The notes: a model not told the origin generated them from the letters alone. Shown: positions 36,027 through 52,200, counted from the first letter of the stretch. The stretch: 64,000 bases of DNA from Opitutia bacterium (GCA_050506795.1 JBJHCF010000001.1:60556-124555), one strand, 5' to 3'. Made by a program: numbers and translations.

Positions 36027-36027
36027 A

Positions 36028-36047: not shown

Positions 36048-36050
36048 GTG

Positions 36051-36234: not shown

Positions 36235-36274
<40 letters not shown>

Positions 36275-36338
36275 GGAATGGCGGGACGGGGGCGTTTGGT
36301 TGCCTATCCGGACGCTGCGAGCAAGCGGCGCTGAGGTT

Positions 36339-36929
36339 ATGGCGCTCGAATATCTGGCAGTCATGAACGATCGGAGTGACAAGGCATTGATCCTGCACCT
36401 CCAGGCGAATTCTGGAGACGGGCACGCCGCGTTTGCGGTGCTGTACCGGCGGCATGGGGAAATGGTACGCAGGGTTGCCTGGCGGTATTTGATCGATAAA
36501 AATCACGTTGATGATGTGCACCAAAACACCTTTGTGCGCTTTTGGAAAAAGCGTCACCGGATCGGAGAGCCCTACCGGGTGAAGGGTTATCTCTCGCGCC
36601 TCGCGCACGATGAGGCGGTGAATCTAAACCGAAGCCCGATGGTGGAGGAATTGTTTTCTTCGTCGGACCTCGAGCGAATTTCCCTGCGGGCTGCATTGAG
36701 GAAAGGCATCGAGGGCCAAAGTGTTCGAATAGCACTACGAGAGTGGTGCGAAAAACACCTTGATGGGAAAACGTCCCGAATATTTATTCTGCGTTTTGTT
36801 GAGGGGTTAAAATATTCTCAAATAGCTGAACAAGAAAAGATCCCAGTGGGAAGCGTTAAACGGATCTTATGTGATTTGAGAAAAAAACTTAAGAAATCGA
36901 AAGATTTTCCGAACCTTTTCCGGATTTAA
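36339..36929 (+). CDS. ECF-type RNA polymerase sigma-70 family factor
   Basis: Region 2 (DDVHQNTFVRFWKK) and region 4 HTH (LKYSQIAEQEKIPVGSVKRILCDLRKKL). GAGG at 36333-36336 precedes ATG 36339. The track start at 36300 is a TTG. Confidence 0.85.
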   Translation: MALEYLAVMNDRSDKALILHLQANSGDGHAAFAVLYRRHGEMVRRVAWRYLIDKNHVDDVHQNTFVRFWKKRHRIGEPYRVKGYLSRLAHDEAVNLNRSPMVEELFSSSDLERISLRAALRKGIEGQSVRIALREWCEKHLDGKTSRIFILRFVEGLKYSQIAEQEKIPVGSVKRILCDLRKKLKKSKDFPNLFRI

Positions 36930-37020: not shown

Positions 37021-37485
37021 ATGAACCCATTACAAGGAAAAGTCAGCCGAAACGGACGCCGGTTTTTGGTCGCAGCGGGGATTATCCTTGCAGTCACGGG
37101 GTTGGCCAAGCTTTTTACCGTTACCGGTGACACAACGTTGTTGCGGGTTTCTGACCCGATTTTCGGGGTCGAGTTTCGGTATTTGATAGCAATGGTAGGT
37201 CTAACCGAGCTAGTTATTGCAGGATTTTGTTTCTTTACCAGATGGGACGCGCTAAGCACCGTCATGGTCGCGTGGATTTCGTCCGGGTTTATGCTTTATC
37301 GGGTCGGGATTCGATCTGCTGATTGGCAGAGGCCGTGTGGGTGTTTGGGAAATCTTACGGATGTGCTAAGAATTCCCTCGCAGATTGCCGAATGGATTTC
37401 AATCGGATTGTTGGCGATTCTCCTTGTCGGCAGCTATTGCGCTCTTTGTGAGGGAATAAGATCGAAAAGGTACGAAACGACGTAA
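37021..37485 (+). CDS. four-TM membrane protein with a CGC motif (MauE/DoxX-like, putative redox-associated)
   Basis: 154 aa with four hydrophobic helices. RPCGCLGN lies in the loop between helices 3 and 4, resembling the xCGCFG motif of MauE-type proteins. Assigned from memory of the family, not from a search. Confidence 0.45.
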   Translation: MNPLQGKVSRNGRRFLVAAGIILAVTGLAKLFTVTGDTTLLRVSDPIFGVEFRYLIAMVGLTELVIAGFCFFTRWDALSTVMVAWISSGFMLYRVGIRSADWQRPCGCLGNLTDVLRIPSQIAEWISIGLLAILLVGSYCALCEGIRSKRYETT

Positions 37486-37549: not shown

Positions 37550-38722
37550 ATGCACAGACTGAGTAATATAATACTAATTCGATTTCGGGTCCCAAACTGT
37601 TGGATTATCCTTATAGGAATCTTCTTTCTCGTCTCTTTCCCGGTTCGTTCGACGGGAGAAGTCGTGATGGCGCTTGAGGGGAAAGGTACTGCCGGAGTTG
37701 TACTTGGAACACAAACGCTTATTTACGAAACTTCCTTTAGCGTTATCCTTGCCGTCGATGGTCGGTTTTTGTTCGATTATGACGATCATGTCCATTATCG
37801 AAATCGAAATGTGGAATTCGGATATGATGGGGAAAACTTTTTGTATTTGATTCGTCCGGGTGACGAAGCGGGCAACCAAGAGGGATTTGCTTATTTGAGT
37901 CTGGATACGGAGCATGTACCGATTTTTGGAATTCAAGATGATGTTCGTGATGCTCTATGGTTGACACTAGGAAGTGGAAGGTTATTTCGCGATCCAGGCT
38001 TGTCGGGCACCGAAATCCCCAATCCGTTCCTAGATCCAAGACACTCTATTGAAGCTCACGGATTTACCTTTGACGCAAAAGTCGTTAATGAACGATTTCC
38101 GTTGACATCAGAATTTTTGCTTGTCCGAGATTATGCAGTCGATAAGGCAACACGAGAGGAAGAAGAACGTCGTTTTGGTTTGAATAGGCTTCATTCATCA
38201 GGTGATTTTCAATGGAACCGACGGCAAGAGTGGAAAGACGGACAGCGTGCCGTCTATTTTGCTTGGGAGAGGGATATCGAGGTAGCCGATTCAGTCAGCG
38301 CACCACTTTCATTGGAGGTTTCTGTGTATGATGTTCGACGCCCTGATGTGAGTGTCCCTCTTAAGCGGATCCATCTTAGATTTGATTCATGGGAGATCGG
38401 CGAACTTGAGAACAAGCGTTTCCTTCCAATGATCGAGGGAAGAATTTACGTGACGGATTTCCGCGTGCGGCGCCGAGATAGCGATTTTGATATCGATTTC
38501 GTGAATTATTACGTTGGACCTGAATCTGAAACAGGCGAGTGGCGCAGAAAAGATGATCCTTGGCTTCTAGAACGTGCGGCCTATCAAGCGACAACGCATA
38601 CCAACATAGAAGGAAGGATTGTCTCGAATCGTATTGTTGTTATTGTGATTGGATTGAGTGCGCTCTTACTTCCATTAGTGATTGTAAAGATGACACAGAA
38701 AGGTAATATGAGTGAGGATTAG
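37550..38722 (+). CDS. hypothetical bitopic protein (N-terminal signal/anchor, C-terminal TM)
   Basis: 390-aa ORF in an AT-rich region where long ORFs are unlikely by chance. N-terminal CWIILIGIFFLVSFPV and C-terminal IVVIVIGLSALLLPLVIV. No recognisable family. Confidence 0.6.
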   Translation: MHRLSNIILIRFRVPNCWIILIGIFFLVSFPVRSTGEVVMALEGKGTAGVVLGTQTLIYETSFSVILAVDGRFLFDYDDHVHYRNRNVEFGYDGENFLYLIRPGDEAGNQEGFAYLSLDTEHVPIFGIQDDVRDALWLTLGSGRLFRDPGLSGTEIPNPFLDPRHSIEAHGFTFDAKVVNERFPLTSEFLLVRDYAVDKATREEEERRFGLNRLHSSGDFQWNRRQEWKDGQRAVYFAWERDIEVADSVSAPLSLEVSVYDVRRPDVSVPLKRIHLRFDSWEIGELENKRFLPMIEGRIYVTDFRVRRRDSDFDIDFVNYYVGPESETGEWRRKDDPWLLERAAYQATTHTNIEGRIVSNRIVVIVIGLSALLLPLVIVKMTQKGNMSED

Positions 38723-38791
38723 GGTTGTTGAAACTTGGAAATGAAAACTTTTTGTGAGTCCTGTAATGTTAATGAACGAAGGGTTAAATCA

Positions 38792-39193
38792 ATGAATAAA
38801 AAAATATCGTTAATCAGAATGAGACTACCTGCTTTCTTACTTCTATTGGTGATCTCGGGAATAGCCGGCGTTGGGCATTTGGTTCTTTATGCTGGTGGAG
38901 GTGGTTCTCCGCCTGGATATCAGTGTCAAGCGGCCGGAGGGCCGAAGCAGTTTCCACCAGCAGACGGGGTGAATCCTTGTGAGAGTCAACTTAACCCAAC
39001 CTGTGAGCCAACCAGATGTGCGTCAATACGTCGACCAAGGGCCTGTAATTTGGTTCCAGGTGGATCTGGCGATTGCACCGAGGAATCTGGTTGTAACTCT
39101 ATTTTCGTTAGTCATGTATATTGCGAGTGGAGTTCACAACAAATCTGTGTTTGCCCACAACAACACCCCCCTGGTAGTCCCGGTGAATTATGA
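38792..39193 (+). CDS. small exported/anchored cysteine-rich protein (10 Cys)
   Basis: MNKKISLIRMRLPAFLLLLVISGIAG anchor, GGGGSPPG linker, then 10 Cys in about 85 residues. AAGGG lies 9 nt upstream of ATG 38792. Alternative starts at 38735 and 38741. Confidence 0.55.
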   Translation: MNKKISLIRMRLPAFLLLLVISGIAGVGHLVLYAGGGGSPPGYQCQAAGGPKQFPPADGVNPCESQLNPTCEPTRCASIRRPRACNLVPGGSGDCTEESGCNSIFVSHVYCEWSSQQICVCPQQHPPGSPGEL

Positions 39194-39601: not shown

Positions 39602-40138
39602 ATGCGGCTACCAGGAATTATGGCATGTTTGGATTATCAGGTAATGCGATTTCTGCTTGTGGGATTTCTCGCGGCGGGCGTGGAATTTGTTTTTTTTAAC
39701 TGGTTCGTTCGGTTCTTCTGGTGTTCGGTTCGTGTGCGGGCTAATCTGGTTGCGGTAACGGTCGCCATGTCGCTAAGTTTTCTTTTGAACCGAAATTGGA
39801 CCTTCGCGGATACGAATTCTGGGAGTTGGCCGGTGATGGAGTTTGTGGTGGTGACGCTTATTGCGGCTTATGGCCTTCAGTCGTTTGTGATTTGGGTCCT
39901 TTCGGTTAATTCGGCTGAAGCTGTATCCGGCGAGGATGTGGGACGACGGATTGATGTATCGTGGATTGGGTTGCCTGGGCGCGAAGTGAAGCGGTTGGCT
40001 TACGGTCTGGCGGGGTGCGGTGGCGCCGCGTCGGCGGGTCGGGTGGATTTTGTGGAGCGTAATTTGGTCAAGGGGGCGGCGTTGGGAGTGGCCTTGATTT
40101 GGAATTTTTCATGGTACCGGTGGTATGTGTTTTCTTAA
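39602..40138 (+). CDS. GtrA-family membrane protein
   Basis: RFLLVGFLAAGVEFVFFNWFVRFF and NRNWTF motifs, four TM helices. The start may be 39644. Confidence 0.72.
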   Translation: MRLPGIMACLDYQVMRFLLVGFLAAGVEFVFFNWFVRFFWCSVRVRANLVAVTVAMSLSFLLNRNWTFADTNSGSWPVMEFVVVTLIAAYGLQSFVIWVLSVNSAEAVSGEDVGRRIDVSWIGLPGREVKRLAYGLAGCGGAASAGRVDFVERNLVKGAALGVALIWNFSWYRWYVFS

Positions 40139-40148
40139 ACTGATCGGA

Positions 40149-40469
40149 GGAACAACGAAACACACGAAACACACGAAAGACACGAAATGAGGGGAATGAA
40201 ATGATATTGAATGGGATCCTCGGGTGGAGGCACGGAGATGGAGGCGGGCAGCGATGTCGGCGTTCGCGGGATGGTGTTCAGGCAGAGGTACGAAGATAAT
40301 GAAGAAGGGTATTGGCCACAGAGATCACAAAGAACACAGACTGGTGAATTTAGCTGAGAACCGACAACGTTTGCGCGCCGATGCGGTAGGTGACGATTTC
40401 CAGTCCGGCGGCACGGGCGGAGCCGTGCCCTCCAGGATTTTTTCGTGCTTTTCGTGTGTTTCGTTGTCC
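40149..40469. repeat. CACGAAA-word inverted-repeat pair enclosing a ~250-bp spacer
   Basis: Left arm 40149-40188 (with an internal CACACGAAA duplication). Right arm 40437-40469 (ATTTTTTCGTGCTTTTCGTGTGTTTCGTTGTCC). Confidence 0.85.
40407..40433. repeat. second copy (reverse orientation) of the GGAGGGCA..GCTCCGCC..TGCCGCC hairpin element
   Basis: The reverse complement GGAGGGCACGGCTCCGCCCGTGCCGCC differs from 27103-27129 at 4 positions. All 4 are compensatory within the 7-bp stem. Confidence 0.8.
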
Positions 40470-40497
40470 GAAATATTTCCGCGGTCCAGGCTGCTCT

Positions 40498-41994
40498 ATG
40501 GAGAATAGAAAGAGGACTGTCATCGTTGGGGCGGGTCCGGCGGGGTTGACGGCGGCGGCGGAGTTGACCGGGTCGGGGTATGAGGTGACGGTGCTGGAGG
40601 CGGACAAGGACTATGTGGGAGGGATTTCGCGTACCGTCCGGTACAAGGATTTTCGCTTCGATATCGGCGGACACCGGTTTTTCAGCAAGAATGCTTCCAT
40701 CGTGGCTTGGTGGAAGGCGCGGTTGCCGGACGATTTTTTAAGCGTCCGGAGGCAGTCCCGGATTTTTTACGGTGGACGGTTTTACGACTATCCGTTGCGT
40801 CCGGCAAACGCTTTGCGGAATCTGGGCGTTTTCAAGAGTACCGCTTGTGTCATCAGCTACCTCCGCAGACGGGTGTTTCCGGTGAAGCCGGAGGTGACGT
40901 TTGAGGATTGGGTGACCAATCGGTTCGGCGACAGGCTGTTCGAGACTTTCTTCAAAACGTATACGGAAAAGGTCTGGGGTATGCCGTGTTCCGAGATCAG
41001 CGCGGACTGGGCGAGCCAGCGGATTAAGGGGCTTTCGTTAAAGGAGGCGGTGCTGGGTGCGTTTCGGGCTCAGGGGAGCGGCAACGGCGTCATCAAGACC
41101 TTGATCGACGAGTTCCAGTACCCGCGCCTGGGGCCGGGGATGATGTGGGAGAGGACCCGCGATGATCTTGCGGATGCCGGAATCCGGGTTCGCATGGGGC
41201 GAAAGGTTACGGAGATCCATCGGCACCACGGTCGAGTGGGGTTTATGCGGACGGTCGATGCGTCCGGGAAGATGGAGGATTGGGAGGCGGACGAATTCAT
41301 CGTGTCGATGCCTCTGCGCGATTGCGTGCTGGCGCTGCGGCCGGGGTTGAGTGAGGAGGCGTGCGTGGCGGCTCGCGGTTTGCGGTACCGTGATTTTCTT
41401 ACCGTGGCCTTGATTGTCGAGGCGGAGGACTTGTTTCCGGACAACTGGATTTACATCCATGACGCGACGGTTTCGGTCGGACGAATCCAGAACTTCAACA
41501 ACTGGAGTTCCGAGATGGTGGGGCGGCCGGGGGTGAGCTGTCTCGGGCTTGAATATTTCTGCAACGAGGGCGATTCCCTCTGGGAGAGTTCCGATGAGGC
41601 TTTGCTCGCGCTGGCGAAATCCGAAATCGGCAAGGTGGGACTGGCGCGGCCGGAGTCGGTGATTGACGGGTGCGTGGTGCGGATGGAGAAGGCGTATCCG
41701 GTTTACGACGGGGAATATGTCGAGCGGGTGAACACGATTCGCCAGGGGCTTTCGGTCCTGCAGAACTTACAGGTGGCCGGGCGGAACGGGATGCACAAGT
41801 ACAACAACCAGGACCATTCGATGATGACGGGCATCCTGGCGGCGCAACGGATCCAGGGCGGGACGCTGGACCCGTGGCGGGTGAACACCGACGCCGAGTA
41901 TCACGAAGGCGGTTCCAGCGAGCGCGAGGTCGGTCGCTTGGTGCCGGGCCGAGTGGAAAAGGATACTGTGGAAAGGACGACGGGGATCGAATAA
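40498..41994 (+). CDS. Rossmann-type FAD/NAD(P)-dependent oxidoreductase (amine-oxidase / UDP-galactopyranose-mutase-like)
   Basis: VIVGAGPAGLTAAAEL dinucleotide-binding motif, EADKDYVGG, DIGGHRFFSK. ATG 40498. The track extension to 40390 is encoded by repeat DNA. Confidence 0.8.
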   Translation: MENRKRTVIVGAGPAGLTAAAELTGSGYEVTVLEADKDYVGGISRTVRYKDFRFDIGGHRFFSKNASIVAWWKARLPDDFLSVRRQSRIFYGGRFYDYPLRPANALRNLGVFKSTACVISYLRRRVFPVKPEVTFEDWVTNRFGDRLFETFFKTYTEKVWGMPCSEISADWASQRIKGLSLKEAVLGAFRAQGSGNGVIKTLIDEFQYPRLGPGMMWERTRDDLADAGIRVRMGRKVTEIHRHHGRVGFMRTVDASGKMEDWEADEFIVSMPLRDCVLALRPGLSEEACVAARGLRYRDFLTVALIVEAEDLFPDNWIYIHDATVSVGRIQNFNNWSSEMVGRPGVSCLGLEYFCNEGDSLWESSDEALLALAKSEIGKVGLARPESVIDGCVVRMEKAYPVYDGEYVERVNTIRQGLSVLQNLQVAGRNGMHKYNNQDHSMMTGILAAQRIQGGTLDPWRVNTDAEYHEGGSSEREVGRLVPGRVEKDTVERTTGIE

Positions 41995-43136
41995 TGCGTG
42001 TCCTACTTGCCGCGTATTTTTCCGTGGTGATCACCGCCGGTGTCCTGGTGGCGACGGGGCTGGTGCCGGATTGGGGGCGGTGGTACTCCAATCACCTGGC
42101 TTACCGCTGGCAGACGGAGGCGCTGCTGAGCGGGTCGGTGTCGATCGGTACCGAGGCGCGGTACCTGGTGTGGGACAAGGTCTGGGCGAATGGAAACGTG
42201 CAACAGGCCTGGGGCCTGGGCGTGCCGTTCTGGAGGTTGCCTTTTGAAGCGGCGGCCGGAGTTTTGGGGCTGGGCATGTTTCCCGACCGAATCGCGTTCG
42301 GGGTGGCGTGGGCATCGGTTGTTTTTCTTTTGATGCGTCTGTTCGTTTTGCCGGGAAACACGAAAGACCCGATGGCGTTCTTGAGACAGAAGCCGGAAGC
42401 CTTTTGTGCGTTTGTCGTGTTGGCGCTGTTTCCCCCTCTGCTCACGATGTGCCGGTTCCGGTTCGTGGTGTACGAGGAGGCGGCGGCTTACAGTTTCCTG
42501 GCGGGGATGGGGTTGTTCGCCGGGACCTTGCTGTTTTTCCGTCGGCCCACGTTGCGGGTGTTCCTGGTGCTGGCCGCCCTGGCGGGTCTGGCCCCGTTCG
42601 TGCGTCCGACGTTGTTGGCTTACGGCGTGACAACAATGCTGGTGATCTCGTACGGCGCGTGGCGGCTCGGATGGTCCTATCCGAGGATGGCCGCGGGGCT
42701 GGGCTTGTTCGCGCTGGGGAGCGTCCTGCTTTTCGCCTCCAATCATGTCCGGTTTGGAGCCCCGCTTGAGTTCGGGCACGGAGTCAACTTGAACACGGTC
42801 GATTCAATGCGCTACACGAGCCGGTTCGATCATCCGTTCCGTTCGGAGCCGCCTGGCTCGGCCGCGGTGGAATTGACCTCCGCGTTGTTTGTCGCCGGGA
42901 ATACGTTCACCGGATATCAATGGTACGCCCCGGAATTGATTCCGGGACAGTCGTCCACGCATCGGTGGCGGGAGTTTTATTTCAAGACGTACGATGTAAG
43001 CTTCGCCCTGATGCTGGTTATTGCCTGGGGATGGGGGATTTGGGGGAAAGGACGAGGGTGGAGGGGCGAGGGTGGAGGGGCGAAGGAGAAGGGGCGAGGG
43101 GCGAGGGGGGTGGTGCGTGGCCGGAGATTGGGGTGA
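41994..43136 (+). CDS. polytopic membrane protein, N-terminal part of a split paralog of 44031-45854 (GT-C-like, putative glycosyltransferase)
   Basis: ATG overlaps the upstream stop (TAATG). Aligns along its whole length with the N-terminal two thirds of the downstream paralog (WGLGVPFWRLPFEAAA, MFPDRIA, FVRPTLLAYG, GAPLEFGH). Ends in a Gly/Arg/Glu tail encoded by the 14-nt repeat. Confidence 0.65.
   Translation: MRVLLAAYFSVVITAGVLVATGLVPDWGRWYSNHLAYRWQTEALLSGSVSIGTEARYLVWDKVWANGNVQQAWGLGVPFWRLPFEAAAGVLGLGMFPDRIAFGVAWASVVFLLMRLFVLPGNTKDPMAFLRQKPEAFCAFVVLALFPPLLTMCRFRFVVYEEAAAYSFLAGMGLFAGTLLFFRRPTLRVFLVLAALAGLAPFVRPTLLAYGVTTMLVISYGAWRLGWSYPRMAAGLGLFALGSVLLFASNHVRFGAPLEFGHGVNLNTVDSMRYTSRFDHPFRSEPPGSAAVELTSALFVAGNTFTGYQWYAPELIPGQSSTHRWREFYFKTYDVSFALMLVIAWGWGIWGKGRGWRGEGGGAKEKGRGARGVVRGRRLG
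43053..43110. repeat. G-rich tandem repeat: CGAGGGTGGAGGGG x2, degenerate third unit, then CGAGGGG x2
   Basis: Read directly. Units at 43053-43066, 43067-43080, 43081-43094, 43095-43101 and 43102-43110. Confidence 0.92.
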
Positions 43137-43855
43137 TGGTGGCTTGGTCGCTGATTGCTTCGGTTCCGATTTTTCTGTTCTATTTGCGGGCGCCGTTTTT
43201 GGCGTCCCGGTATTTGCTGGATTTCGGACCGGCGTTTGCGGTGGCGGCGGCGGTTTTTGTGTTCTGGTGCGGAGGGGTGGCGCGGGCGTACGTTCGCTCG
43301 CGGCGGTACGCGAACGGGATCGTTGTGACGGTGTTTTTCCTGTGGTGGGGGTGGCAGGTTTTTACGGCGCAAGGCGCTTTCGATCCGGCGCCGGTTCTGA
43401 CGCGCGAGCAACTGTCGACGCGCATGGCGATGGTGAGGGGAGAGGCTTCCGAGGTTCGGTTGCCGGACGAGTACCGGGCGGGGATGGATGCGGAGCGCGC
43501 GTGGCCGCCGTTCAACGCGGCCGGATGGGACCTTGAAACCGGGCCCACCAGGGCGGCGGTCACCCTTTTTGTTCCCGGAGTGAAGGAGTTGATATTGGAA
43601 ATAGCGCCTGCCGAAGAGGCGTCGCTCGCGGCTGACGACTACAAACGGATCCAAGCGAAGGTGGGCGTGGAATTCCTGGAGCGTATGCGTATCGAGGAGA
43701 CGGACGAGGGGCGTCGTTTGGTGTTCCGGGGACCGAAGCGGGAGATCTATCGAAACGGTATGCAGGCGGCGTTTTTAGGTTTCGCATGCGCCGAAACGGT
43801 GACCGATGGGGATTCGGATTTCCGGCTTTTGCGGGTCGAGTGGAAAGAATGGTAA
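43136..43855 (+). CDS. C-terminal part of the split membrane-protein paralog
   Basis: ATG overlaps the stop of 41994-43136 (GTGATGG). Aligns with the C-terminal third of 44031-45854 (SRYLLDFGPAF, FLWWGWQVF, C-terminal soluble domain). Confidence 0.6.
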   Translation: MVAWSLIASVPIFLFYLRAPFLASRYLLDFGPAFAVAAAVFVFWCGGVARAYVRSRRYANGIVVTVFFLWWGWQVFTAQGAFDPAPVLTREQLSTRMAMVRGEASEVRLPDEYRAGMDAERAWPPFNAAGWDLETGPTRAAVTLFVPGVKELILEIAPAEEASLAADDYKRIQAKVGVEFLERMRIEETDEGRRLVFRGPKREIYRNGMQAAFLGFACAETVTDGDSDFRLLRVEWKEW

Positions 43856-43863
43856 AGGAGGGG

Positions 43864-44001
43864 GAAACAACGAAACACACGAAAGGCACGAAAAAATACA
43901 GAGGAGAAAATTTTGATTCAGAAAACCACCTTGCTGACTCTTCTTCAAAAAAGGCACAGATTGTTATCCATTTTCGTGCCTTTCGTGTGTTTCGTTGTTT
44001 C
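43864..44001. repeat. perfect 31-bp inverted repeat GAAACAACGAAACACACGAAAGGCACGAAAA with a 76-nt spacer
   Basis: Arms at 43864-43894 and 43971-44001, verified base by base. Lies between the two membrane-protein paralogs. Confidence 0.95.
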
Positions 44002-44030
44002 AAAATAAATCCGAGCACAGGCTCCAATCA

Positions 44031-45854
44031 ATGCGGCTTCGAATTTTATTAATCTATTTTGCCATTGTGGCGGCTGTGGGGGTGGTGGTGGGTACGGGGC
44101 TGATCACCGGGCCGGGGGCTTGGTACTCGGTGAGCATGCCTTATCGGTACCAGACGGAAGCGTTTCTTCGGGGGGAGATCGCTCTGTCCAAAGAACCGAC
44201 CGGATTGATGCACGACCATGTGTGGGCCGAGGGAGGCGTGCATCAGGTTTGGGGGCTGGGAGTTCCGGTGTGGCGGTTGCCGTTCGAGGCGGCGGCCAAA
44301 CTTGTGGGGCAACCGATGTTTCCCGACCGGATCGCCTTGGCACTGGCCCTGGCGCTGTTCGCCTACGTTGTGCTGGCGTCGGTGACGAATCGCGCGGGCG
44401 CGGGTAGTGTGACGGAATGGATCGACGGGATAAGGCGGCATCCCGAGCTCATCATGGTCGCAGTGCTGCTAATCCTGTTTCCGCCACTACTGGCATTGTT
44501 GCGGGGGCCGTTCAACGTGTACGAAGAAGCGGTTGCGTACGGGTGCCTGGTGGCCATTGGCCTTCTGGCAGCCCTGCTTGCGCTGGCTCGTCGTCCTGTG
44601 ATGAGGAATTACCTGTTCTTATGTTTGGCCGCGGGACTCATCGGTTTCGTCCGACCGACCATGTTGGCCTACGGAATGGCTACCGTGCTGCTCGCCTTTT
44701 GCATCGCCTGGCGTTCCGGTTGGAGCTGGAGGCTCCAATGGAGCGGATGGGTGGCTTTTGTCGCGGGGGTTGGGTTGTTGTTCGCGACCAACGCAATGCG
44801 TTACGGGTCCCCCTTTGAGTTCGGGCACCGGTTGAACGTGACCGGACTGGATCTGATCTACGCCTCCCGTTTCGAAGCCTTGTACCATAGCGAATCTTTT
44901 GTGGCGGCGGCGAAGGAGTTGTTCGGTTCGGTTTTTCTGACCAGGGAAATGAACGGCTTTGCCGTGTATCAGGAAGGGGTGGTGCCCATGCAGGCGCCGA
45001 GCCCGCGATGGCGTCATTTCTACCAGCCGACTTTCGGTCCGACCTATTTGGTGTTGCTCGCGGCCGGTTGGTTGCTGGGCCTTCGCAAGTTGGTGATGGA
45101 GTTCGTCAGGCACCGCGATCTTCGATTGGATGCCACCACGGTGGCCGCCGCGTGGTCGTTCGGGGCCATGATTCCGATCGCTTATTTTCTCCTGCATTTT
45201 CACGCCAGTTCTTCGCGCTACATCCTGGATTTCGCGCCCGGAATCGCGGCCGGAATAGCGGCGGGGCTGTACGCGCTGAAGGACCTTCCGCAACGATGGA
45301 GGGGCCGGCGGACAATGGGGGCGCTCGCCGCGGTTTTCTTGTTGTGGTGGGGATGGCAGGTGTTTCAAGCCGACTACGATCCACCGGGCCGCGCGCCGCT
45401 GAACCGAGCACAGGCTGAGGCGTTTTTCAGGGATAACGTGCCTCCTTTTGGCGGGCTTCCCTCGGAGTACGCCCTCGGTGACGGTTCATTGGCCCGTTCG
45501 GGAATCCACGGTAATGTGCTTGGATGGCGAGCGGATGACGGTCGGGTGCGGCCGACGGCGGTGGTATTCGTCGAAGACATGGAATGGCTGAAAATCGACC
45601 TGGCGCCGGCATTGGGGGAATTTTTGCCACGGGAGCACTACGCCATGGTCCGGGCCAAAGTCGGACTGGAGGAGTTGGTGCTGACGTCGATGGAAGAGAC
45701 GGAGGACGGTTGGCGCTTGGAGTTCGCCGCACCCGAGAGGGCGGCGTACCGCGAAGGGGTGCAAGTGGTTTTCCTGGCCTTGGTTCCGGTGGAGGATTTT
45801 CTGGAAAGCTACTCTCCGTTCGTACTTTCCCGCGTGGCCTGGAGGAGCGAATAG
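44031..45854 (+). CDS. polytopic membrane protein with C-terminal soluble domain (GT-C-like, putative glycosyltransferase), intact paralog
   Basis: 607 aa from MRLRILLIYF, with about 11-13 hydrophobic segments. Paralogous to 41994-43855. The family assignment is tentative. Confidence 0.68.
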   Translation: MRLRILLIYFAIVAAVGVVVGTGLITGPGAWYSVSMPYRYQTEAFLRGEIALSKEPTGLMHDHVWAEGGVHQVWGLGVPVWRLPFEAAAKLVGQPMFPDRIALALALALFAYVVLASVTNRAGAGSVTEWIDGIRRHPELIMVAVLLILFPPLLALLRGPFNVYEEAVAYGCLVAIGLLAALLALARRPVMRNYLFLCLAAGLIGFVRPTMLAYGMATVLLAFCIAWRSGWSWRLQWSGWVAFVAGVGLLFATNAMRYGSPFEFGHRLNVTGLDLIYASRFEALYHSESFVAAAKELFGSVFLTREMNGFAVYQEGVVPMQAPSPRWRHFYQPTFGPTYLVLLAAGWLLGLRKLVMEFVRHRDLRLDATTVAAAWSFGAMIPIAYFLLHFHASSSRYILDFAPGIAAGIAAGLYALKDLPQRWRGRRTMGALAAVFLLWWGWQVFQADYDPPGRAPLNRAQAEAFFRDNVPPFGGLPSEYALGDGSLARSGIHGNVLGWRADDGRVRPTAVVFVEDMEWLKIDLAPALGEFLPREHYAMVRAKVGLEELVLTSMEETEDGWRLEFAAPERAAYREGVQVVFLALVPVEDFLESYSPFVLSRVAWRSE

Positions 45855-45880
45855 GACGGTGGAAAGGTGGCTGATGGAGA

Positions 45881-46002
45881 GGGAACAACGAAACACACAA
45901 AAGGACTATGTTTTATGGGTGGAAAAGGAAATATTCCAAGGAGGGAAAGCCACCGCGTGATGTCATCCATTTTCGTGCTTTTTGTGTGTTTCGTTGTTTC
46001 CC
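45881..46002. repeat. CACGAAA-word imperfect inverted-repeat pair (~60-nt spacer)
   Basis: Left arm GGGAACAACGAAACACACAAAAGGAC (45881-45906). Right arm ATTTTCGTGCTTTTTGTGTGTTTCGTTGTTTCCC (45969-46002). Confidence 0.85.
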
Positions 46003-46058
46003 AAAATCCGAATAATAATTAACCTATCCTCTAGTCAGATTAACTGCTGATTCTTACC

Positions 46059-46793
46059 ATGAAATCAATATCCCGAAATCTCCCGAACCCTGAGGTAACG
46101 AGAAGCGGGTTCACTTGGATTGAGTGCCTGGTGGTGGTGGCGGTGCTTGGCGTGCTGGCGGCGGTGCTGGTTCCGGTGGTCGGGAAAATGCGCGAATCGG
46201 CCCGGCGGGCGGCGTGCGCGGAGAACCTTCGGGTGATCGGCAACGCGGCGTTGCATTATGCCGAGGAATGGGACGGTCGTTTTCCCAGGATGGATCCGGG
46301 GGGAAGGTGGCCGTGGGATGTGTCGGTAAACGTCACCTATGCGCTGAGCCCATACGGGACGATCCGTGACACCTTTTATTGCCCTTCCGGGCCGTTTGAT
46401 GAGCGGGCGGTGCTTTGGGATCACGGGGTGAGTTTTACCCGCGGAGGGGAGCGGGGAAGTCGTACGATATCGTACGTTCTTTTATTTGAGCGCGCGCCCA
46501 GGGTTTTGCCTCAATACACGCATTCGCGCCTCCCGGCGACCGGTTCGGGGGGTGAGGCGGTGGGCCCGCAAGAACTCGCGGTCGATGCCGTTCTTTCCGC
46601 GGGCGGCGGACGACACGCCAACTTTCATCGTATCATTCACGGCAGCATGCCGCGCCCGGATCGGACGAATCACCTGAACGGCACCCAACCCGCCGGCGGA
46701 AACGTGTTGTTCCTGGATGGGCATGTCGCCTGGCGGGATTTTGAGGAAATGGACGAGACCAAAGTCACCGGCGTTCCGGTGTTTTGGTGGTGA
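46059..46793 (+). CDS. prepilin-type N-terminal cleavage/methylation domain protein (H-X9-DG pseudopilin-like), paralog of 35253-36026
   Basis: SGFTWIECLVVVAVLGVLAAVLVP leader, GGNVLFLDGHVAWRDF, and C-terminal FWW shared with the paralog. Confidence 0.82.
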   Translation: MKSISRNLPNPEVTRSGFTWIECLVVVAVLGVLAAVLVPVVGKMRESARRAACAENLRVIGNAALHYAEEWDGRFPRMDPGGRWPWDVSVNVTYALSPYGTIRDTFYCPSGPFDERAVLWDHGVSFTRGGERGSRTISYVLLFERAPRVLPQYTHSRLPATGSGGEAVGPQELAVDAVLSAGGGRHANFHRIIHGSMPRPDRTNHLNGTQPAGGNVLFLDGHVAWRDFEEMDETKVTGVPVFWW

Positions 46794-46810
46794 GCGGCTT
46801 GCGCCGGCTG

Positions 46811-46840
46811 CTGGTTCCTGGTTCCTGGTTTGGAGGTTTG
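46811..46840. repeat. CTGGTTC heptamer array
   Basis: ctggttc|ctggttc|ctggttt|gg, directly after the pseudopilin-like gene, as at 36051. Confidence 0.8.
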
Positions 46841-46882: not shown

Positions 46883-47608
46883 ATGGGGGTGTTATGCAAA
46901 AAGAGCCAATTGGCGTTGTTGCGGGAGAAGTTGCGGCGGGAGTTTCCCGGGAGTTTGCCTGCGGGTGAAAGGGTCAAAGTTTTCCCCACCGGGGTGCCGG
47001 GGTTGGATGGCTTGCTGGAGGGCGGGTTGCCGCGGGGCGGGGTGACGGAAGTCAGGGTGTGGGCCGCCAGCGCGGGCGGACAGACCTTATTGATGACGGT
47101 GCTCGATGCGGTGACCGCCCGGCCGGCGCCCGTCGCTATCATCGACCGGGCGGATGCCTGGGATTTTTCTGTCCTGAGCCCGGATCGGCGGCAGTGGGTG
47201 CTTTGGGTGCGTTGCCGGGGGGAGGGAGAGGCGGTGCGCGCGACCGACCTGTTGGTGCGCGACGGCAATTTTCCGCTGGTGGTGATGGATCTGCGGCGTC
47301 CGCCGGGGGAGCGTCGCGGGCGAAGCCTGCCGTCGCGAATCTGGTACCGTTTGCAACGGGGCGCGGAGCGTTCGGGGTGCGCGCTGGTGGCGGTCACCGG
47401 CGGGGAGTCTCTGCCCTGCGCCCGGCTTAAATTGAGTTTGCGCGTGTCCCTGAGCCTGGAGCACTTGGAGGCGCTGCACGAAAGACGGGTTTCCTGGGAA
47501 AGCGTGTTGGAAGTCTGTCAGGACGGGGAAATCTTCACCGGGCCGGATGGCCTTCCCGCGGCGCGGACGGAGCCACGCTCTCCAGGAGTTTTGTCCGTCT
47601 CGAATTAA
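46883..47608 (+). CDS. imuA: ImuA-like (RecA/SulA-fold) translesion-cassette protein
   Basis: FPTGVPGLDGLLEGGLPRGGVTEV motif. Positioned first in the imuA-imuB-dnaE2 cassette. Confidence 0.75.
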   Translation: MGVLCKKSQLALLREKLRREFPGSLPAGERVKVFPTGVPGLDGLLEGGLPRGGVTEVRVWAASAGGQTLLMTVLDAVTARPAPVAIIDRADAWDFSVLSPDRRQWVLWVRCRGEGEAVRATDLLVRDGNFPLVVMDLRRPPGERRGRSLPSRIWYRLQRGAERSGCALVAVTGGESLPCARLKLSLRVSLSLEHLEALHERRVSWESVLEVCQDGEIFTGPDGLPAARTEPRSPGVLSVSN

Positions 47609-47621
47609 ACAAGCACGACCT

Positions 47622-49079
47622 ATGAGTTACGCGGCGATCGGGATTCCAGGGTTTGCGCTGCAGGCGGCTTTGCGCTGCAGGGGTGGGGTTGGGGATCGGG
47701 TGGTGGTGTTGATGGACGAGACCTCACGCCGGGCGCGGGTTGTCGCGATGACCGCCTCGGCGGCGCGTCGCGGGATCAGGATGGGAATGACCGCTCCGCA
47801 AGTCTTGGCGCGCGAGCCCCGGGCCGAGATCGTTTCCCGTTCGCCGGAAGGAGAGGCGGCGGCCGCGACCCTTTTGCTTCGTCACGGTGGCTCGCTGGCG
47901 CCCCGCGCCGCCTGTGTCGAACCCGGGTTGTGCCTGGTGGACCTGGCAGGGGTTCCGCTGAAACGGCGGGAGCGGCAGCCCCGGGAAATCGTGACGGCGT
48001 TGCAACGCGAAGGGTTGAGCGCGCGTATCGGAATCGCTCGTACATCCGGACTCGCCCGGCTCGCCTGGCGGCGGGCGGAGCCGGTGCTGGAGGTGACCGA
48101 TGAAAAGGCGTTTGTCACTGATTTTCCCGTACACCTGGCCGGGCTGTCTCCGGCGGGAGAGAGGCTGATGAGGCATTGGGGGATGCGCACCCTGGGCGCG
48201 TTCGCCGCGCTTTCGCGCCAGGCGGTGGCGGAACGGCTGGGCGCGGAGGGGGTGGCGTTGTGGGATGTGGTCAACGGACGCGACAGCGCGCCGTTGCAGC
48301 CGGCGAGAGAGGAGGAGGTGTTTGAGGAGCGGATCGAATTCGAAACCGGGGTGGAAGCGCTCGATCCGGTTCGGCGTCAGGTGCAAATACTGGTGGAGCG
48401 TTTGATGGGGCGTTTGCGGTCCGGTCATCTGGCGGTAGACGAGTTGCTGCTGGAATTGGGGCAGGAATACGCCGCGCCGCTCGGACGGAGGTTTCGCCTG
48501 CCCGAGCCGGCCACCCGCGAGGATGTGGTCCTGCGCACTTTGGGGATCTGGCTGGAGTCGCTCAAGAGCGAACGCCGGGTGACCGGCGTGTATTTGCGAA
48601 TGTTTCCCGGCCGCATGCAGGCGAGGCAGGGCGAGCTCTTTGATGCCGGCATGGCCGACGCCCGTCGCCTGGCCGAAACGCTGGCCAACCTGACCGCCGT
48701 GGTCGGCGCCGACCGGGTGGGGTCACCCGGCCTGCTTCCCACCCACCGGCCGGACGCTTTCCGGATGGAACGGTTTTTTCCTGCCGGGAAGCGTATTGAT
48801 AATTCTATGACAGAGAATCCGGTTATGCCGCGGCCGCGCCGGTTTCGTCCTCCGCTTCCGGTTGCGGTGACACTGATCCGGGGACGCCCGCTGCGGCTGG
48901 CGGGAGCCTTTACCAATGACGAGATCGCCGGTTTGCAGGGACCCTGGTGTTTGTGCGGGGACTGGTGGCGCGAGGATCGCTGGTGGCGGGAGGAGTGGGA
49001 TGTCAAACTGCGGGGCGGCGGGGTTTACCTGTTGGTTCGCAGCGCGCGCGGTTGGCGCCTGGAGGGGATGTATGATTAG
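47622..49079 (+). CDS. imuB: ImuB, Y-family DNA polymerase-like protein
   Basis: MSYAAIGIPGFALQAAL start and a Y-family palm/fingers-like N-terminal half. Middle position in the cassette. Confidence 0.8.
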   Translation: MSYAAIGIPGFALQAALRCRGGVGDRVVVLMDETSRRARVVAMTASAARRGIRMGMTAPQVLAREPRAEIVSRSPEGEAAAATLLLRHGGSLAPRAACVEPGLCLVDLAGVPLKRRERQPREIVTALQREGLSARIGIARTSGLARLAWRRAEPVLEVTDEKAFVTDFPVHLAGLSPAGERLMRHWGMRTLGAFAALSRQAVAERLGAEGVALWDVVNGRDSAPLQPAREEEVFEERIEFETGVEALDPVRRQVQILVERLMGRLRSGHLAVDELLLELGQEYAAPLGRRFRLPEPATREDVVLRTLGIWLESLKSERRVTGVYLRMFPGRMQARQGELFDAGMADARRLAETLANLTAVVGADRVGSPGLLPTHRPDAFRMERFFPAGKRIDNSMTENPVMPRPRRFRPPLPVAVTLIRGRPLRLAGAFTNDEIAGLQGPWCLCGDWWREDRWWREEWDVKLRGGGVYLLVRSARGWRLEGMYD

Positions 49080-49114
49080 GGTCCGGTACCCTGAAATGGT
49101 AGCCAGCGGAAGCA

Positions 49115-49150
49115 GGGCTCACACGGAGACACGAAGACACGGAGTGAAGG
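49115..49150. repeat. CACGGAG-word repeat copy (GGGCTCACACGGAGACACGAAGACACGGAGTGAAGG)
   Basis: Homologous to 18801-18836. Contains three 8-nt units acacggag|acacgaag|acacggag. Confidence 0.75.
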
Positions 49151-49171
49151 CATGCGCGAAGAGCAGGACTT

Positions 49172-49203
49172 AAATCCAAAATCCGCAATCCAAAATCCAA
49201 AAT
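49172..49203. repeat. AAAATCC heptamer array
   Basis: aaatcc|aaaatcc|gcaatcc|aaaatcc|aaaat. Ends 8 nt before the dnaE2 ATG. Confidence 0.85.
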
Positions 49204-49210
49204 ATAATAT

Positions 49211-52200
49211 ATGTCGACTTACGTGGAGTTGCATCTGTCGAGCGCTTTCAGCTTTTTGCGAGGCGCGTCGGCGCCGGAGGAGTTGGCTCGGGTGACGGCC
49301 GATCGGGGCATGAGTGCGGCCGCGTTGTGCGACCGCAACGGGCTTTACGGGGCGGCGCGTTTTTACCAGGCGGCGCGGGAGCACGGGATACGTCCGCTGG
49401 TCGGGTGTGAACTCGACTGGGTGGGGGGGGGGGTGCTGCCGGTGCTGGTGGCGTCGCGCCGGGGTTACCGCAACCTGTGCCGTTTGCTGACCCGGGTGCA
49501 TTTGCGGGGCGCCAAGGGGGAGTTCCGGGCCGGATTGGCGGATATGGAGGGGCGCTCCGAGGGATTGATCGCCCTGACCGGCGGCCGGGACGGTCCCTTG
49601 CGGGAGGCCTGGGAGCGGGGCGGCCGGCGGGCGGTGGAGGGGACTCTGGATTGGCTTTTACGGATCTTCCCCGACGGTAATCTTTACGTGGAACTGCAGC
49701 GTCACCTGTTGCGGGAAGAGATGCGGTGGGAGGGTTTGTTGCGGGACCTGGCCGCTACCCGGGGATTGTCCCTGGTGGCCACCAACGGGGTGCTTTATGC
49801 CAAAAGCGAAGGGCGGATGGTGACCGATGTGTTCACCTGCCTGCGTCACCACACCCATCTCGACCGGGCGGGAACTTTGCTGGAGCGCAATGCCGAGCGC
49901 CGCATCAAAAGCCCTGAGGAAATGGCGTTGCTGTTCGCGGATGTTCCGGAGGCGATCGCCAATTCCGTGGTCGTCGCGGAGCGGCTGGAGTTCACTCTGG
50001 ACGACATCGGGTACCGTTTTCCCACTTACCCGGCGCCGTCCGGGGAAACCATGGATTCCTACCTGCGGAAACTCACGTTGGCCGGGGCCGGGGAACGTTA
50101 CGGAAAGCCCGGGCCGGCGGTGCGGGCGCAGCTTGACCGGGAACTGGCGCTTATCGCGAAACTGGGATTCAGCGGCTATTTTCTCGTGGTGTGGGATCTG
50201 GTGGAGTTTTGCCGGCGCAACGACATCATGGTCCAGGGCCGGGGGAGCGCTGCCAACAGCGCGGTGTGTTACTGTCTGGGCATCACCGCGGTCGATCCGG
50301 TGGGCGGGCGCTTGCTTTTCGAGCGTTTTTTAAGCGAGGGAAGAAAAACCTGGCCGGATATCGATCTCGATCTTCCCAGCGGGGAGCGCCGGGAGGCGGT
50401 GATCCAGGAGGTTTACCGTCGCTACGCGCCCAACGGTGCCGCCATGACCGCCAACGTTATCACCTACCGGGGACGCAGCGCGATACGGGAGATCGGCAAG
50501 GTCCTGAATTTTCCGGAGGAAACCCTGAACCGGTTTTCGAGCCTCTATGCCGGCGGAGATTATCCCCATACGCTCGATTTCGGAAAACAACTTTCCCAGG
50601 CCGGGATTTCGCCGCGTCATCCGAGGGCGGGGATTCTGCAACGGCTTTACGGCATGATTTACGGGTTGCCCCGTCACCTGGGGCAGCATCCCGGCGGCAT
50701 GATCGTTTGCCAGGGGGAACTGGACGGCGTGATGCCGCTGGAAAACGCGTCAATGCCCGGGCGGGTGGTGGCGCAGTGGGACAAGGACGATTGTGAGGAT
50801 CTGGGAATCGTCAAGGTGGACCTGTTGGGGCTCGGAATGATGTCGGCCCTGCAGGATGCGCTGAAGACAGCCGAACGACGCGGCCGCCCGGTCGATCTCG
50901 CACGGATTCCGAAGGATGACCCCGCCACTTACGATTTGATGTGCCGGGCCGATACCGTCGGGGTGTTTCAGATCGAAAGCCGGGCGCAGATGGCGACCCT
51001 TCCGCGGATGCAACCTCGAACTTTCTACGACCTGGTGATCGAGGTGGCTATCATTCGTCCGGGTCCGATTCAGGGAAATCTGGTGCACCCTTATCTGGAA
51101 CGCCGGGCGGGCCGGCAACCGGTGCGTTATTTCGATGAACGTCTGATTCCCGTCCTCGAGCGCACTCTGGGGGTGCCGCTGTTCCAGGAGCAGGTGCTCA
51201 AAATAGCCATGGAAATGGCCGATTTCAGCGGGACCGAGGCGGAGGAGTTGCGGCGGGCGCTGAACTTTCACCGTTCGCCGGAACGTTTGGACAAAGCCAC
51301 CGCCAAGCTGCGCGAAGCCATGCGGAGGAAGGGAGTTGACGATCGTACCATCGAGGAGATCGCGGAGGCGGTGGGTTCGTTCGCGCTGTACGGTTTTCCG
51401 GAATCCCACGCCATCAGTTTCGCTTTACTCGCCTACGCCAGCGCCTACCTGAAAGTGCATCGTCCGGCGGAGTTTTACATGGCCCTGCTGAACAATCAGC
51501 CCATGGGATTTTATTCTCCGGCGACACTGGTGCGGGACGCGAAAGCCCGCGGTATTCGGGTCCTGCCGGTGTGTGTGACTCTTTCCGGCTGGGATTGCTC
51601 GGTGGAGGACGATCACACGATTCGGCTGGGATTCGCCGTCATCCGTGACCTGCGCCGCGCGTCCGTCGAAAAGGTGTGCCGCGAACGCGCGCGGGCGCCG
51701 TTCCGTTCCATACGCGATCTGCTGGCGCGTACGGGTCTGAATCTGACGGAAAGACGGGCGCTGGCCCTGGTGGGCGCGTTGAACGCGCTGGCCGGTCACC
51801 GGCGTAACGCGCTCTGGCTGGTGGACGAAGCGGTGGCGGGCATGGGGTTGTTTCTGGCCGCGGCGGATGAGACGGAAACCGAAGAAAGCGCCGCCGGGCC
51901 CCTGGCCATGATGTCTTACCTGGAGCGCCTGCACGCCGATTACGCGGGCATGGAATTGAGCACCGGCGCGCACCCGATGAAGTGCCTGCGATCAGGATTG
52001 CAGGGGATTCTGAGCGCCGCGGATTTGAAAGGGGAAAAAGCCGGACGCCGGGTCACCCTGGCCGGCAGTGTGATCTGCCGTCAGAGACCGGCAACCGCCA
52101 GGGGAGTGGTGTTTATCAGTCTGGAGGACGAAACCGGCATCGGTAACGCGGTGGTGTCGTCCGGCCTGTTCGAACGTTATCGCCTGCTGATTTCCCGGGA

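Follow-up and report, generated by a model that had tools for sequence, protein, structure and literature searches.

We show that the gene boundaries of a 12-kb accessory cell-envelope locus in an Opitutia bacterium (GCA_050506795.1, JBJHCF010000001.1:60556-124555; this whole stretch of 64,000 nucleotides is referred to here as the window) carry nine short repeat arms made of tandem 9-nt words, arranged as four inverted pairs and one solo copy (36148-36173). The best-supported reading of the nine sites is that they are copies of one portable word-array module within a class of mosaic, fast-evolving extragenic repeats at gene boundaries. By analogy, the module resembles in kind the bacterial interspersed mosaic elements (BIME), repetitive extragenic palindromes (REP) with their REPIN doublets, and MITEs (miniature inverted-repeat transposable elements), and in architecture the paired tandem-repeat sites of Geobacter metallireducens. 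With a confidence that falls a little short of even, we further propose that the doublets in this locus act as intercistronic RNA hairpins.

The window was searched with an nhmmer profile built from the eight arms reported in the initial annotation. All eight were recovered, together with a ninth, decayed minus-strand copy that the annotation had missed (34015-34051, E=0.002), and no further site scored across the 64 kb. The nine arms lie between 33.7 and 46.0 kb and are confined to 12.3 kb. The 19-mer core AACAACGAAACACACGAAA, allowing up to three mismatches, gave nine matches, one of them an overlapping register, where 0.03 were expected, and a 32-mer consensus with up to two mismatches matched three sites against 0 expected. 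Together with an inverted-repeat search, these results confirm the repeat observation itself. Each arm has a (G/T)(G/T)AAC head, with AAC-type variants that include GGAAAC and GGAAC, followed by two to four tandem 9-nt units CACGAAANN, here called CACGAAA words; TRF reported the 9-nt period in every arm, which is thus a short tandem array. T is absent from one strand of the arms and A from the other, and we refer to the two orientations as A-rich and U-rich arms.

Three pairs were returned by the inverted-repeat search: pair 2 (43864-43894 with 43971-44001; 31 nt, 100% complementary, 76 nt apart), pair 1 (40152-40178 with 40441-40467; 27 nt, 93% complementary, 253-262 nt apart) and pair 3 (45881-45902 with 45980-46001; 22 nt, 95% complementary, 77 nt apart), the last with a stem that reaches inward to 45969 once G.U pairs are allowed. 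Pair 0 was recognized by alignment and joins 33733-33769 to the decayed arm across a spacer of ~245 nt, so that of the two forward copies previously listed as solo, the one at 36147 is solo and the one at 33735 is not. As had been reported, three pairs directly follow plus-strand stop codons: pairs 1-3 begin 8-26 nt after a stop and end 29-57 nt before the next start codon, and pair 0 sits between divergent genes for an S9 peptidase (minus strand) and a Rpn/YhgA-like fragment (plus strand). Of 14 contexts, 13 are tandem, one is divergent and none is convergent. The very long stems that had been anticipated are indeed predicted, with 22-31 bp in pairs 1-3 and folding energies of −59.2 kcal/mol (z −8.5) for pair 2, −51.3 (z −6.1) for pair 3 and −121 (z −3.9) for pair 1; for pairs 2 and 3 this amounts to −51 to −59 kcal/mol with z of −6 to −8.5. 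The two membrane-protein paralogues on either side of pair 2 are only 36-44% identical in protein sequence while the flanking arms are 90-100% identical in DNA, which indicates that the arms are not leftovers of a gene duplication. Sequence likeness beyond the arms proved more limited than first described: the extended right-arm junction ATCCATTTTCGTGC is present in two right arms, decayed to CCATCCGTTTCGTGG in the fourth and absent from 40437, and the sites at 36147 and 40149 have only the short blocks ATGAG and AACCGACAACG in common. At 36148-36173 the solo arm continues into the ATGAG and AACCGACAACG modules and then a (CT)18 run. Its description as a truncated composite is nonetheless plausible, as AACCGACAAC occurs inside the same composite element of the sister strain L176.

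Because the genes are co-directional and no promoter-like site lies between them, the doublets are most likely transcribed inside a polycistronic mRNA. Within such a transcript, each doublet would fold into a near-perfect stem of 22-31 bp. Stems of this length are textbook substrates of RNase III and barriers to 3' exonucleases, with parallels in the RNase III sites between T7 early genes, in Correia/nemis elements and in REP stabilizers. The most likely outcome is intercistronic double-stranded RNA, which would serve as an RNase III-type processing element and shield the 3' end of the upstream cistron from 3' exonucleases, and such effects on processing or stability would uncouple the fates of adjacent cistrons. 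If this reading is right, the arms define a new family of extragenic hairpin repeats with an unusually wide spread among little-studied phyla (the Planctomycetota-Verrucomicrobiota-Chlamydiota group, Acidobacteriota and Marinimicrobia), one that breaks assemblies, seeds spurious small open reading frames (ORFs) and marks recombination breakpoints between strains, and its recognition would help both annotation and the understanding of how accessory envelope loci are reshuffled.

Comparison with relatives, which had been suggested as a presence/absence check, showed that sister strains with flanking genes ~88-91% identical in DNA carry different combinations of modules at the same junctions, and that more distant syntenic clusters carry almost none. 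The orthologue of the gene at 44031-45854 is held by three lineages (the window, L174 and L124), with coding sequences 88-91% DNA-identical. Upstream of it the window has the full pair 2; L174 has the same loop at 85.5% identity, a right arm identical at 31/31 positions and a left arm decayed to about 24/31, preceded by a PDDEXK_3 gene instead of the membrane-protein paralogue; and L124 has a right arm identical at 30/30 positions, with the left arm and loop swapped for other word modules. The coding sequences next to the right arms of L174 and L124 are only 88-89% identical to that of the window. The pair 3 site measures 490 nt in the sister strains L175 and L176 versus 204 nt in the window, and there contains a REP-like palindrome, a U-rich and an A-rich arm in tail-to-tail arrangement separated by 33 nt, a composite interior made up of four to five GCGGAG words, CACAGAGATCACAAAG and AACCGACAAC, and a right arm reduced to a vestige. 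Pair 1 of the window encloses this composite interior as well, with homology both to intergenic sequence of L138 and L124 that has no arms and to the L175/L176 element. The L138 copy, found upstream of the oxidoreductase at the syntenic junction, is not accompanied by CACGAAA arms and holds a 30-mer identical to that of the window, CGGCGGCACGGGCGGAGCCGTGCCCTCCAG; in L124 a pair 1-type interior occurs with one arm. L125 has a single arm (675-701) syntenic with the solo copy of the window and otherwise tight junctions, and the syntenic clusters L139-L142 have tight junctions and no arms. For the GtrA/oxidoreductase junction, the genome collection held no orthologue above 73% identity that could supply an empty site. 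An arm edge coincides repeatedly with a homology breakpoint. Judged from these alignments, arms and interior modules are independent building blocks reshuffled at gene boundaries, a BIME-like mosaicism rather than the insertion of one defined transposon. For their spread, a putative process of copying and recombination that acts at gene boundaries and exchanges arms and interiors separately fits better than cut-and-paste transposition.

Two kinds of sequence within these elements deserve separate mention. Within the composite interior, four to five GCGGAG(R)C words stand in tandem, in numbers that vary between L175 (330-375) and L176 (110-165), and the corresponding words of the window lie at 40225-40250; with ATGGAGG and CACGGAG they give six to nine GGA motifs on the sense strand, and the purine-rich strand is the sense strand in 5/5 loci. 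This arrangement is reminiscent of CsrA-titrating RNAs or of Shine-Dalgarno-like arrays. The GC-rich, REP-like palindromes CGGCGGCACGGGCGGAGCCGTGCCCTCCAG and CTGGAGGGCAACGCTCCGCCGTTGCCG (window 40405-40437 and 27102-27167; L138 4013-4043; L124 3594-3620; L175 115-141) look like a separate dispersed repeat family, and the 30-mer palindrome is identical in the window and L138 despite flanking proteins that are only ~73% identical.

The most interesting part of the finding is that the same word recurs across phyla and in phages. A 17-mer pattern used to scan a genome collection was too short and returned mostly chance matches, and the fetched loci were therefore re-scored. The extended motif AACGAAACACACGAAAGRCACGAAAA was then present in Neomarinimicrobiota (many copies), Verrucomicrobiota, Victivallales and Lentisphaeria, Kiritimatiellia, Planctomycetota, Pyrinomonadaceae (Acidobacteriota), one metagenome-assembled genome (MAG) labelled Bacillota, and the isolates Geobacter argillaceus ATCC BAA-1139 (L086) and Desulforhopalus vacuolatus DSM 9700, which places the word array in at least seven phyla. 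The usual layout outside the window is again a hairpin of A-rich arm, loop and U-rich arm, with loops of 10-260 nt, including partner spacings of 10-21 nt in L008, L119 and L135; the Neomarinimicrobiota copies have about 165 nt in common. The arms are also places where assemblies break. U-rich arms lie 13-35 nt upstream of start codons in bacterial loci of several phyla. In IMG/VR, an exact 25-mer was found in three contigs and two permuted-word controls of the same composition in none, and the generalized pattern ACCACGAAANACACGAAANACACGAAA matched 34 stretches on about 24 contigs, several of them with three to five copies. The carrier contigs encode tail proteins, an integrase, a primase and a Mu F-like protein. 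Arm-like BLAST queries against GenBank phages and PLSDB plasmids gave no match, a literature search by exact arm sequence found no paper, and one for CACGAAA as a word found only the yeast SCB box. Two loci carry further structure. At L044 5735-5860, in the Neomarinimicrobiota genome, a 126-nt palindromic element with the ends GAGGCTCTTGCAAAACCTCC and GGAGGTTTTGCAAGCGCCTC is nested in the loop of a CACGAAA hairpin and is absent from the copy L010. In the MAG SMAG_U3089 (L007, L092, L094, L097, L108), five copies have the reversed order of U-rich array, ~40 nt and A-rich array, directly followed by an ATG and a small hydrophobic ORF, MGI(A/T)L(I/V)AA..., conserved in 3/4 examined, a layout that resembles a small toxin gene with a structured leader.

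An inverted pair reads A-rich arm first on both strands, so only solo arrays are informative about orientation. We scored 53 distinct phage arrays from about 24 IMG/VR contigs. An ORF stop lay within 45 nt upstream of 28/53 arrays when the A-rich strand was taken as sense and of 10 when it was antisense (4.9 for random positions), the first start codon of an ORF lay within 45 nt downstream of 18 and 6, respectively (random 4.4), and both conditions held for 9 and 0 (random 0.7). Stop-adjacent solo arrays in bacterial loci gave 11 with the A-rich strand as sense versus three opposite. The preference for gene 3' ends noted in the window thus generalizes, with 39 solo arrays versus 13 placing the A-rich strand on the coding strand just past an ORF stop. 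We conclude that the A-rich strand, U-free in RNA, is preferentially the mRNA strand just past a stop codon. On one phage contig (L122), the arrays occupy exactly the non-overlapping junctions between tail genes.

Several points weigh against the intercistronic hairpin and have to be set beside it. Co-transcription and processing, whether as cleavage or stabilization, are steps that we infer, as are the effect on fitness and the copying mechanism. In pair 2, the gene-proximal U-rich arm is identical at 31/31 positions while the loop is 85% and third codon positions are 77% identical, and the A-rich partner is decayed or replaced in L174 and L124, a pattern seen at one locus in three lineages. 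With a loop identity of 85.5%, 31 unchanged bases would arise by chance in fewer than 1% of comparisons (0.855^31 ~0.008), which leaves purifying selection on the arm or its homogenization by conversion from other copies; a single U-rich arm conserved beside a decayed partner points to single-arm function or to gene conversion. On the phage contigs, most arrays stand alone, with no partner to form a hairpin. Over 15 pairs, 21.7/26 positions of an arm match the complement of its own partner and 21.1/26 match the arms of other genomes, no covariation between partners was found beyond the shared consensus, and G.U versus A.C mismatches showed no strand asymmetry, each strand folding more stably in 8/16 hairpins. 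Since the match to the own partner is about that across genomes and no G.U asymmetry is seen, selection seems to act on the sequence of the words and not on pairing. The recurrence of the same 9-mer across phyla is explained by neither a hairpin nor a selfish-DNA model. The orientation bias and pairing data fit a pure hairpin model poorly, and keep alive both the binding of single arms and a U-free array read in mRNA.

These results raise a second possibility, which we regard as doubtful but credible, that (G/T)(G/T)AAC-(CACGAAANN)3 is a previously undescribed gene-boundary signal common to several phyla and phages and read sequence-specifically. Candidate readers would include a terminating or re-initiating ribosome, RNA polymerase or Rho, and an RNA- or DNA-binding protein. 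The coding-strand module would mark stop-to-start junctions, the inverted doublets would be a masked or derived form of it, and the word arrays CACGGAGA, CACAGAGA and CACGGAT might be variants of the same code. Such a signal would be a rare case of a cis-element conserved in sequence across phyla and phages and placed exactly at stop-to-start junctions, and with it the way in which bacteria sparing with Shine-Dalgarno sites deal with intercistronic junctions could be tested directly.

Single-arm function could also reside in double-stranded DNA, each arm being a binding array of about three tandem 9-bp sites for a widely conserved protein and its hairpin potential a by-product. Candidates would be a nucleoid-associated protein or global regulator, or a transposase of the Tn7, Mu or IS21 type that binds ends in trans. 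This view accommodates arms that follow a cross-phylum consensus without covarying with their partners, the gene-proximal arm that stays 31/31 in three lineages while its partner decays, the A3-4 tracts recurring every 9 bp, and the U-rich arms 13-35 nt upstream of starts, a typical operator or promoter-proximal position; the same proposal was made for the Geobacter paired sites (PMC2700814). We nevertheless think it unlikely, if by no means negligible: no candidate protein co-occurs in the 65 loci, DNA looping could not take place across partner spacings of 10-21 nt, solo arrays would not be expected to show their strong coding-strand bias, and a 9-bp period does not keep phase with the DNA helix.

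Alternatively, the U-free A-rich array, which would be unstructured and contains no start or stop codon, could act in mRNA as an intercistronic leader associated with starts or re-initiation, with the inverted U-rich copy in bacteria as a masking anti-leader or a mere fold-back duplicate. The coding-strand bias of the phage arrays at stops, at starts and at both together is what such a leader would produce, many arrays precede GGAGG-type sites or an ATG directly, those of L122 fill the tail-gene junctions exactly, and those of SMAG_U3089 stand directly before the conserved small ORF. The window offers less encouragement. None of its A-rich arms precedes a credible ORF, the ORFs in the loops read the right arm in differing frames, and the arm next to the start codon in bacteria is the U-rich one. 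Moreover, an ATG occurs right past phage arrays at about the chance frequency, no trans-acting factor or rRNA complementarity was identified, and the strand bias would equally follow if the more harmful orientation of a selfish insert were purged. We consider this explanation rather improbable.

The initial annotation had also suggested MITE-like elements, and the repeats are dispersed and strain-variable in keeping with that idea. Classical MITEs, with arms as terminal inverted repeats of non-autonomous transposons and a transposase encoded elsewhere, would account for terminal arms of 22-31 bp, for intergenic, multi-copy elements of 121-320 bp (<600 bp; roughly 120-320 bp) and for presence or absence at the strain level, and a fragment of a Rpn/YhgA-like Transposase_31 gene adjoins pair 0. 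The check for target-site duplications was negative, with none at the outer ends of the 14 pairs examined, which came from the window and seven other sources. Pairs 2 and 3 have loops unrelated to each other, and the interior of pair 1 occurs without arms in L138 and with one arm in L124. An all-against-all BLAST of 1,182 ORFs within 2.5 kb of the arms at the 65 loci found no protein family that recurs as a neighbour outside duplicated loci, and no kb-scale arm pair enclosing a transposase or other gene was seen among the loci examined. Finally, an element body could not fit into hairpin loops of 10-20 nt, and a classical MITE therefore appears quite improbable.

The position right past stop codons would also suit bidirectional intrinsic terminators or attenuators, in which CG clamps (CACG/CGUG then UUU) would destabilize the RNA-DNA hybrid as the stem zips. 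The order of A-rich arm first and U-rich arm second is identical on both strands, and because RNA polymerase is universal, termination could account for recurrence across phyla. A consensus scan, however, found no terminator-like site on any arm, and loops of 60-260 nt with stems of 22-31 bp are far from canonical. The right arms are separated from the next start by 29-57 nt that contain no promoter-like site, so that efficient termination would silence the downstream genes of the apparent operon; solo arrays in phage operons have no stem, and 13/14 contexts are tandem and none is convergent. We judge this reading very improbable. Invertons, in which the arms would be recombinase sites that flip a promoter-bearing spacer to phase-vary surface-glycan genes, would suit the shared inverted repeats upstream of several envelope or glycosylation genes, as in Bacteroides capsule loci, and can hardly be entertained here: the Pfam-scanned genes of the locus include no invertase, recombinase or integrase, the loops have no promoter-like site, related hairpin loops of 10-21 nt cannot invert, and the pair 2 loop of L174 has the same orientation as that of the window, no flipped version having been seen.

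Inverted doublets of short extragenic repeats able to form hairpins are found here as in REP and REPIN elements; the arms lack a GTAG-type head, and the window genes scanned include no RAYT. Other identities were considered and rejected. A promoter scan found no sigma-70-type site at arms or loops. Inspection by eye against consensus sequences disposed of promoters for extracytoplasmic function (ECF) sigma factors, as the T-free strand cannot supply the -10 T and the CG dinucleotides lie 12-13 and 21-22 nt past the AAC head and not 17-18, and of sigma-54 promoters, as GGCACG is not followed by TTGC. Integron attC sites do not fit because the outer ends GAAACAAC and GTTGTTTC depart from R'' RYYYAAC and R' GTTRRRY, the stems are perfect and the locus has no integrase. 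Rfam gave no match at the gathering score, and at E<5 only spurious matches of miRNA precursors to the long stem. Two small ORFs of 31 and 35 codons, noticed by eye in the loops, differ in the frame in which they read the right arm, which means that no loop peptide is conserved, and they were rejected. Likeness to Mu/Tn3 ends, parS, the DnaA box, BoxA and 16S rRNA complementarity was superficial and was dropped.

The arms and genes of the locus are listed in Table 1. The gene map rests on Pfam matches and exact protein look-ups, a GC3-based gene caller being unreliable in this genome.

Table 1. Repeat arms and genes of the envelope locus, in order along the window
Feature	Position	Strand	Remarks
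S9 prolyl oligopeptidase	31533-33749	-	
Pair 0, A-rich arm	33733-33769	+	GGGGAACCACGAAACACACAAAAGGCACGAAAT; ~85 nt upstream of likely S9 peptidase start (minus-strand gene)
Pair 0, decayed partner arm	34015-34051	-	Plus-strand reading CCATCCGTTTCGTGGCTATTGTGTTTCGTTGTCTCCAAAAT; profile search E=0.002
Rpn/YhgA-like Transposase_31 fragment	34320-35054	+	
DUF1559 pseudopilin	35253-36026	+	
Solo two-word arm	36148-36173	+	After DUF1559 gene 35253-36026, upstream of ECF sigma gene
ECF sigma factor	36300-36929	+	
MauE-like	37021-37485	+	
Two genes of unknown function	37550-39193	+	
GtrA	39602-40138	+	
Pair 1, A-rich arm (four words)	40146-40188	+	Starts 8-11 nt past GtrA stop codon 40136-40138
Pair 1, interior	40189-40434	+	Mosaic: ATGA words, GGAG/CGGAG words, CCACAGAGATCACAAAGAACACAGA, AACCGACAACG, palindrome CGGCGGCACGGGCGGAGCCGTGCCCTCCAG
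Pair 1, arm U-rich on plus strand	40435-40472	-	Ends 29 nt before FAD-oxidoreductase start codon 40498
FAD oxidoreductase	40498-41994	+	
Membrane protein, frameshifted	41994-43855	+	
Pair 2, A-rich arm	43861-43899	+	Perfect core 43864-43894; starts 8 nt past stop codon 43853-43855
Pair 2, loop	43895-43970	+	76 nt
Pair 2, U-rich arm	43966-44004	-	Core 43971-44001; 29 nt upstream of ATG 44031
Paralogue of frameshifted membrane protein	44031-45854	+	
Pair 3, A-rich arm	45880-45906	+	Core 45881-45902; third word lost; starts 26 nt past stop codon 45852-45854
Pair 3, U-rich arm	45965-46004	-	Core 45980-46001; 57 nt upstream of DUF1559 start 46059
DUF1559	46059-46793	+	
imuA-like, imuB (IMS family), dnaE2 (Pol III alpha family)	46883-52327	+	

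Homologues of the FAD oxidoreductase bear names from Verrucomicrobia, Methylacidiphilales, Opitutaceae and Planctomycetaceae, which makes the host a probable member of the Planctomycetota-Verrucomicrobiota-Chlamydiota group. The Transposase_31 gene (34320-35054, with 33922-34263) has a DUF4351 tail, lacks the first ~60 profile positions and is probably a pseudogene; the decayed arm immediately precedes it. Between 36000 and 40000 lies a low-GC island (46-48% vs about 60%) with the ECF sigma factor, the MauE-like protein, two proteins without a Pfam match and GtrA; the island was probably acquired horizontally, and all nine arms lie in or beside it. A perfect (TC)18.5 microsatellite at 36236-36272, ~30-70 nt upstream of the ECF sigma factor gene, could be a slippage-prone switch. 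Directly downstream of the repeat-rich locus is an apparent imuA-imuB-dnaE2 error-prone polymerase cassette, its imuA call being a weak, sub-threshold RecA-family match.

Word arrays of other kinds occur in the window. Around 11361-11659, about eight tandem 22-nt units (GATAGGCGATAGACGATAGGGG) right past a stop codon face an inverted copy at 11615-11659, ~70 nt away, in a second word-array inverted repeat with arms of up to 45 nt that are 93% complementary. Within the gene at 41994-43855, a T-free array of GGGGCGAGG and GGTGGAGGGGCGAGG words (43040-43115; TRF periods 7 and 14) stands exactly at the frame shift (41994-43136 vs 42920-43855), where the intact paralogue at 44031-45854 is ~10 codons shorter; this is either an in-gene word-array insertion that broke the gene or a sequencing error in G runs. 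Words of the type CAAAATCC follow the right arms of pairs 0, 2 and 3. Both plus-strand DUF1559 genes are directly followed by GGTTC/TTGG word arrays such as CTGGTTCCTGGTTCCTGGTTTGG (36046-36082 and 46794-46833), the first preceded by a small terminator-like stem at 36027-36047, and a related array in complementary orientation is present at 20901-20958. The gap between imuB and dnaE2 contains CACACGGAGACACGAAGACACGGAG, made of CACGGAGA words (49120-49144), and AAATCCAAAATCCGCAATCCAAAATCCAAAAT (49166-49203), which ends in TATAAT a few bases before the dnaE2 start codon.

Among known systems, BIME, REP and REPIN elements are likewise extragenic, often follow genes within operons, form inverted hairpin doublets with mosaic motifs and turn over rapidly between strains. 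REP stems stabilize upstream mRNA. The arms differ from them in that they lack the GTAG-type head and are tandem T-free word arrays and not imperfect palindromes, and in that their sequence is common to several phyla while REP sequences are lineage-specific. Correia/nemis elements of Neisseria, ERIC and RUP elements also measure 100-320 bp, carry terminal inverted repeats and lie between co-transcribed genes, and transcribed Correia inverted repeats are RNase III substrates that alter mRNA stability, the mechanism proposed here. Correia elements, in contrast, have a TA target-site duplication and homologous interiors, whereas the repeats described here have no such duplication, differ in their interiors without any relation between them, and combine arms and interiors independently. 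The RNase III hairpins of T7 early genes and the stems flanking rRNAs similarly place long stems between cistrons and partition a polycistronic transcript, but they are not dispersed repeats and have no word periodicity, and cleavage of the arms described here is only proposed. The SAS and ESAS repeats that Pope et al. reportedly described in 2011 from Cluster K mycobacteriophages are said to be short and conserved, to occur many times in each phage genome, to lie just upstream of starts on the coding strand and sometimes to be accompanied by inverted repeats with a variable spacer. That likeness is a lead only: SAS is said to be a 13-bp GGAG motif of one phage cluster, whereas here the repeat is a 27-nt U-free array that also occurs in bacterial chromosomes from several phyla.

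The word-array architecture has its closest and only precedent in G. metallireducens, for which classes 1-3 of "predicted global regulator binding sites" were described (Aklujkar et al. 2009, BMC Microbiol 9:109, PMC2700814). These consist of three to five tandem words of 7-9 nt, paired on opposite strands at a variable distance, intergenic and present in tens of copies, and IHF/HU binding was proposed for them as a hypothesis (PMC2700814). The arms likewise combine tandem words, opposite-strand pairs at variable distance, intergenic position and multiple copies. Their word, CACGAAANN, is a different one, and the paper described its classes as exclusive to the one genome, whereas the CACGAAA word spans many phyla and phages. 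There are also points of contact in sequence: CACGGAGA words, whose complement is the class 2 word TCTCCGTS, stand near CACGAAA arrays in the window (40230 and 49120-49144), L009 and L016, and a CACGAAA hairpin is present in a Geobacter isolate (L086). If the array is indeed a sequence-specific gene-boundary signal, it would also provide a handle on the Geobacter paired tandem-repeat sites, which have stood unexplained since 2009.

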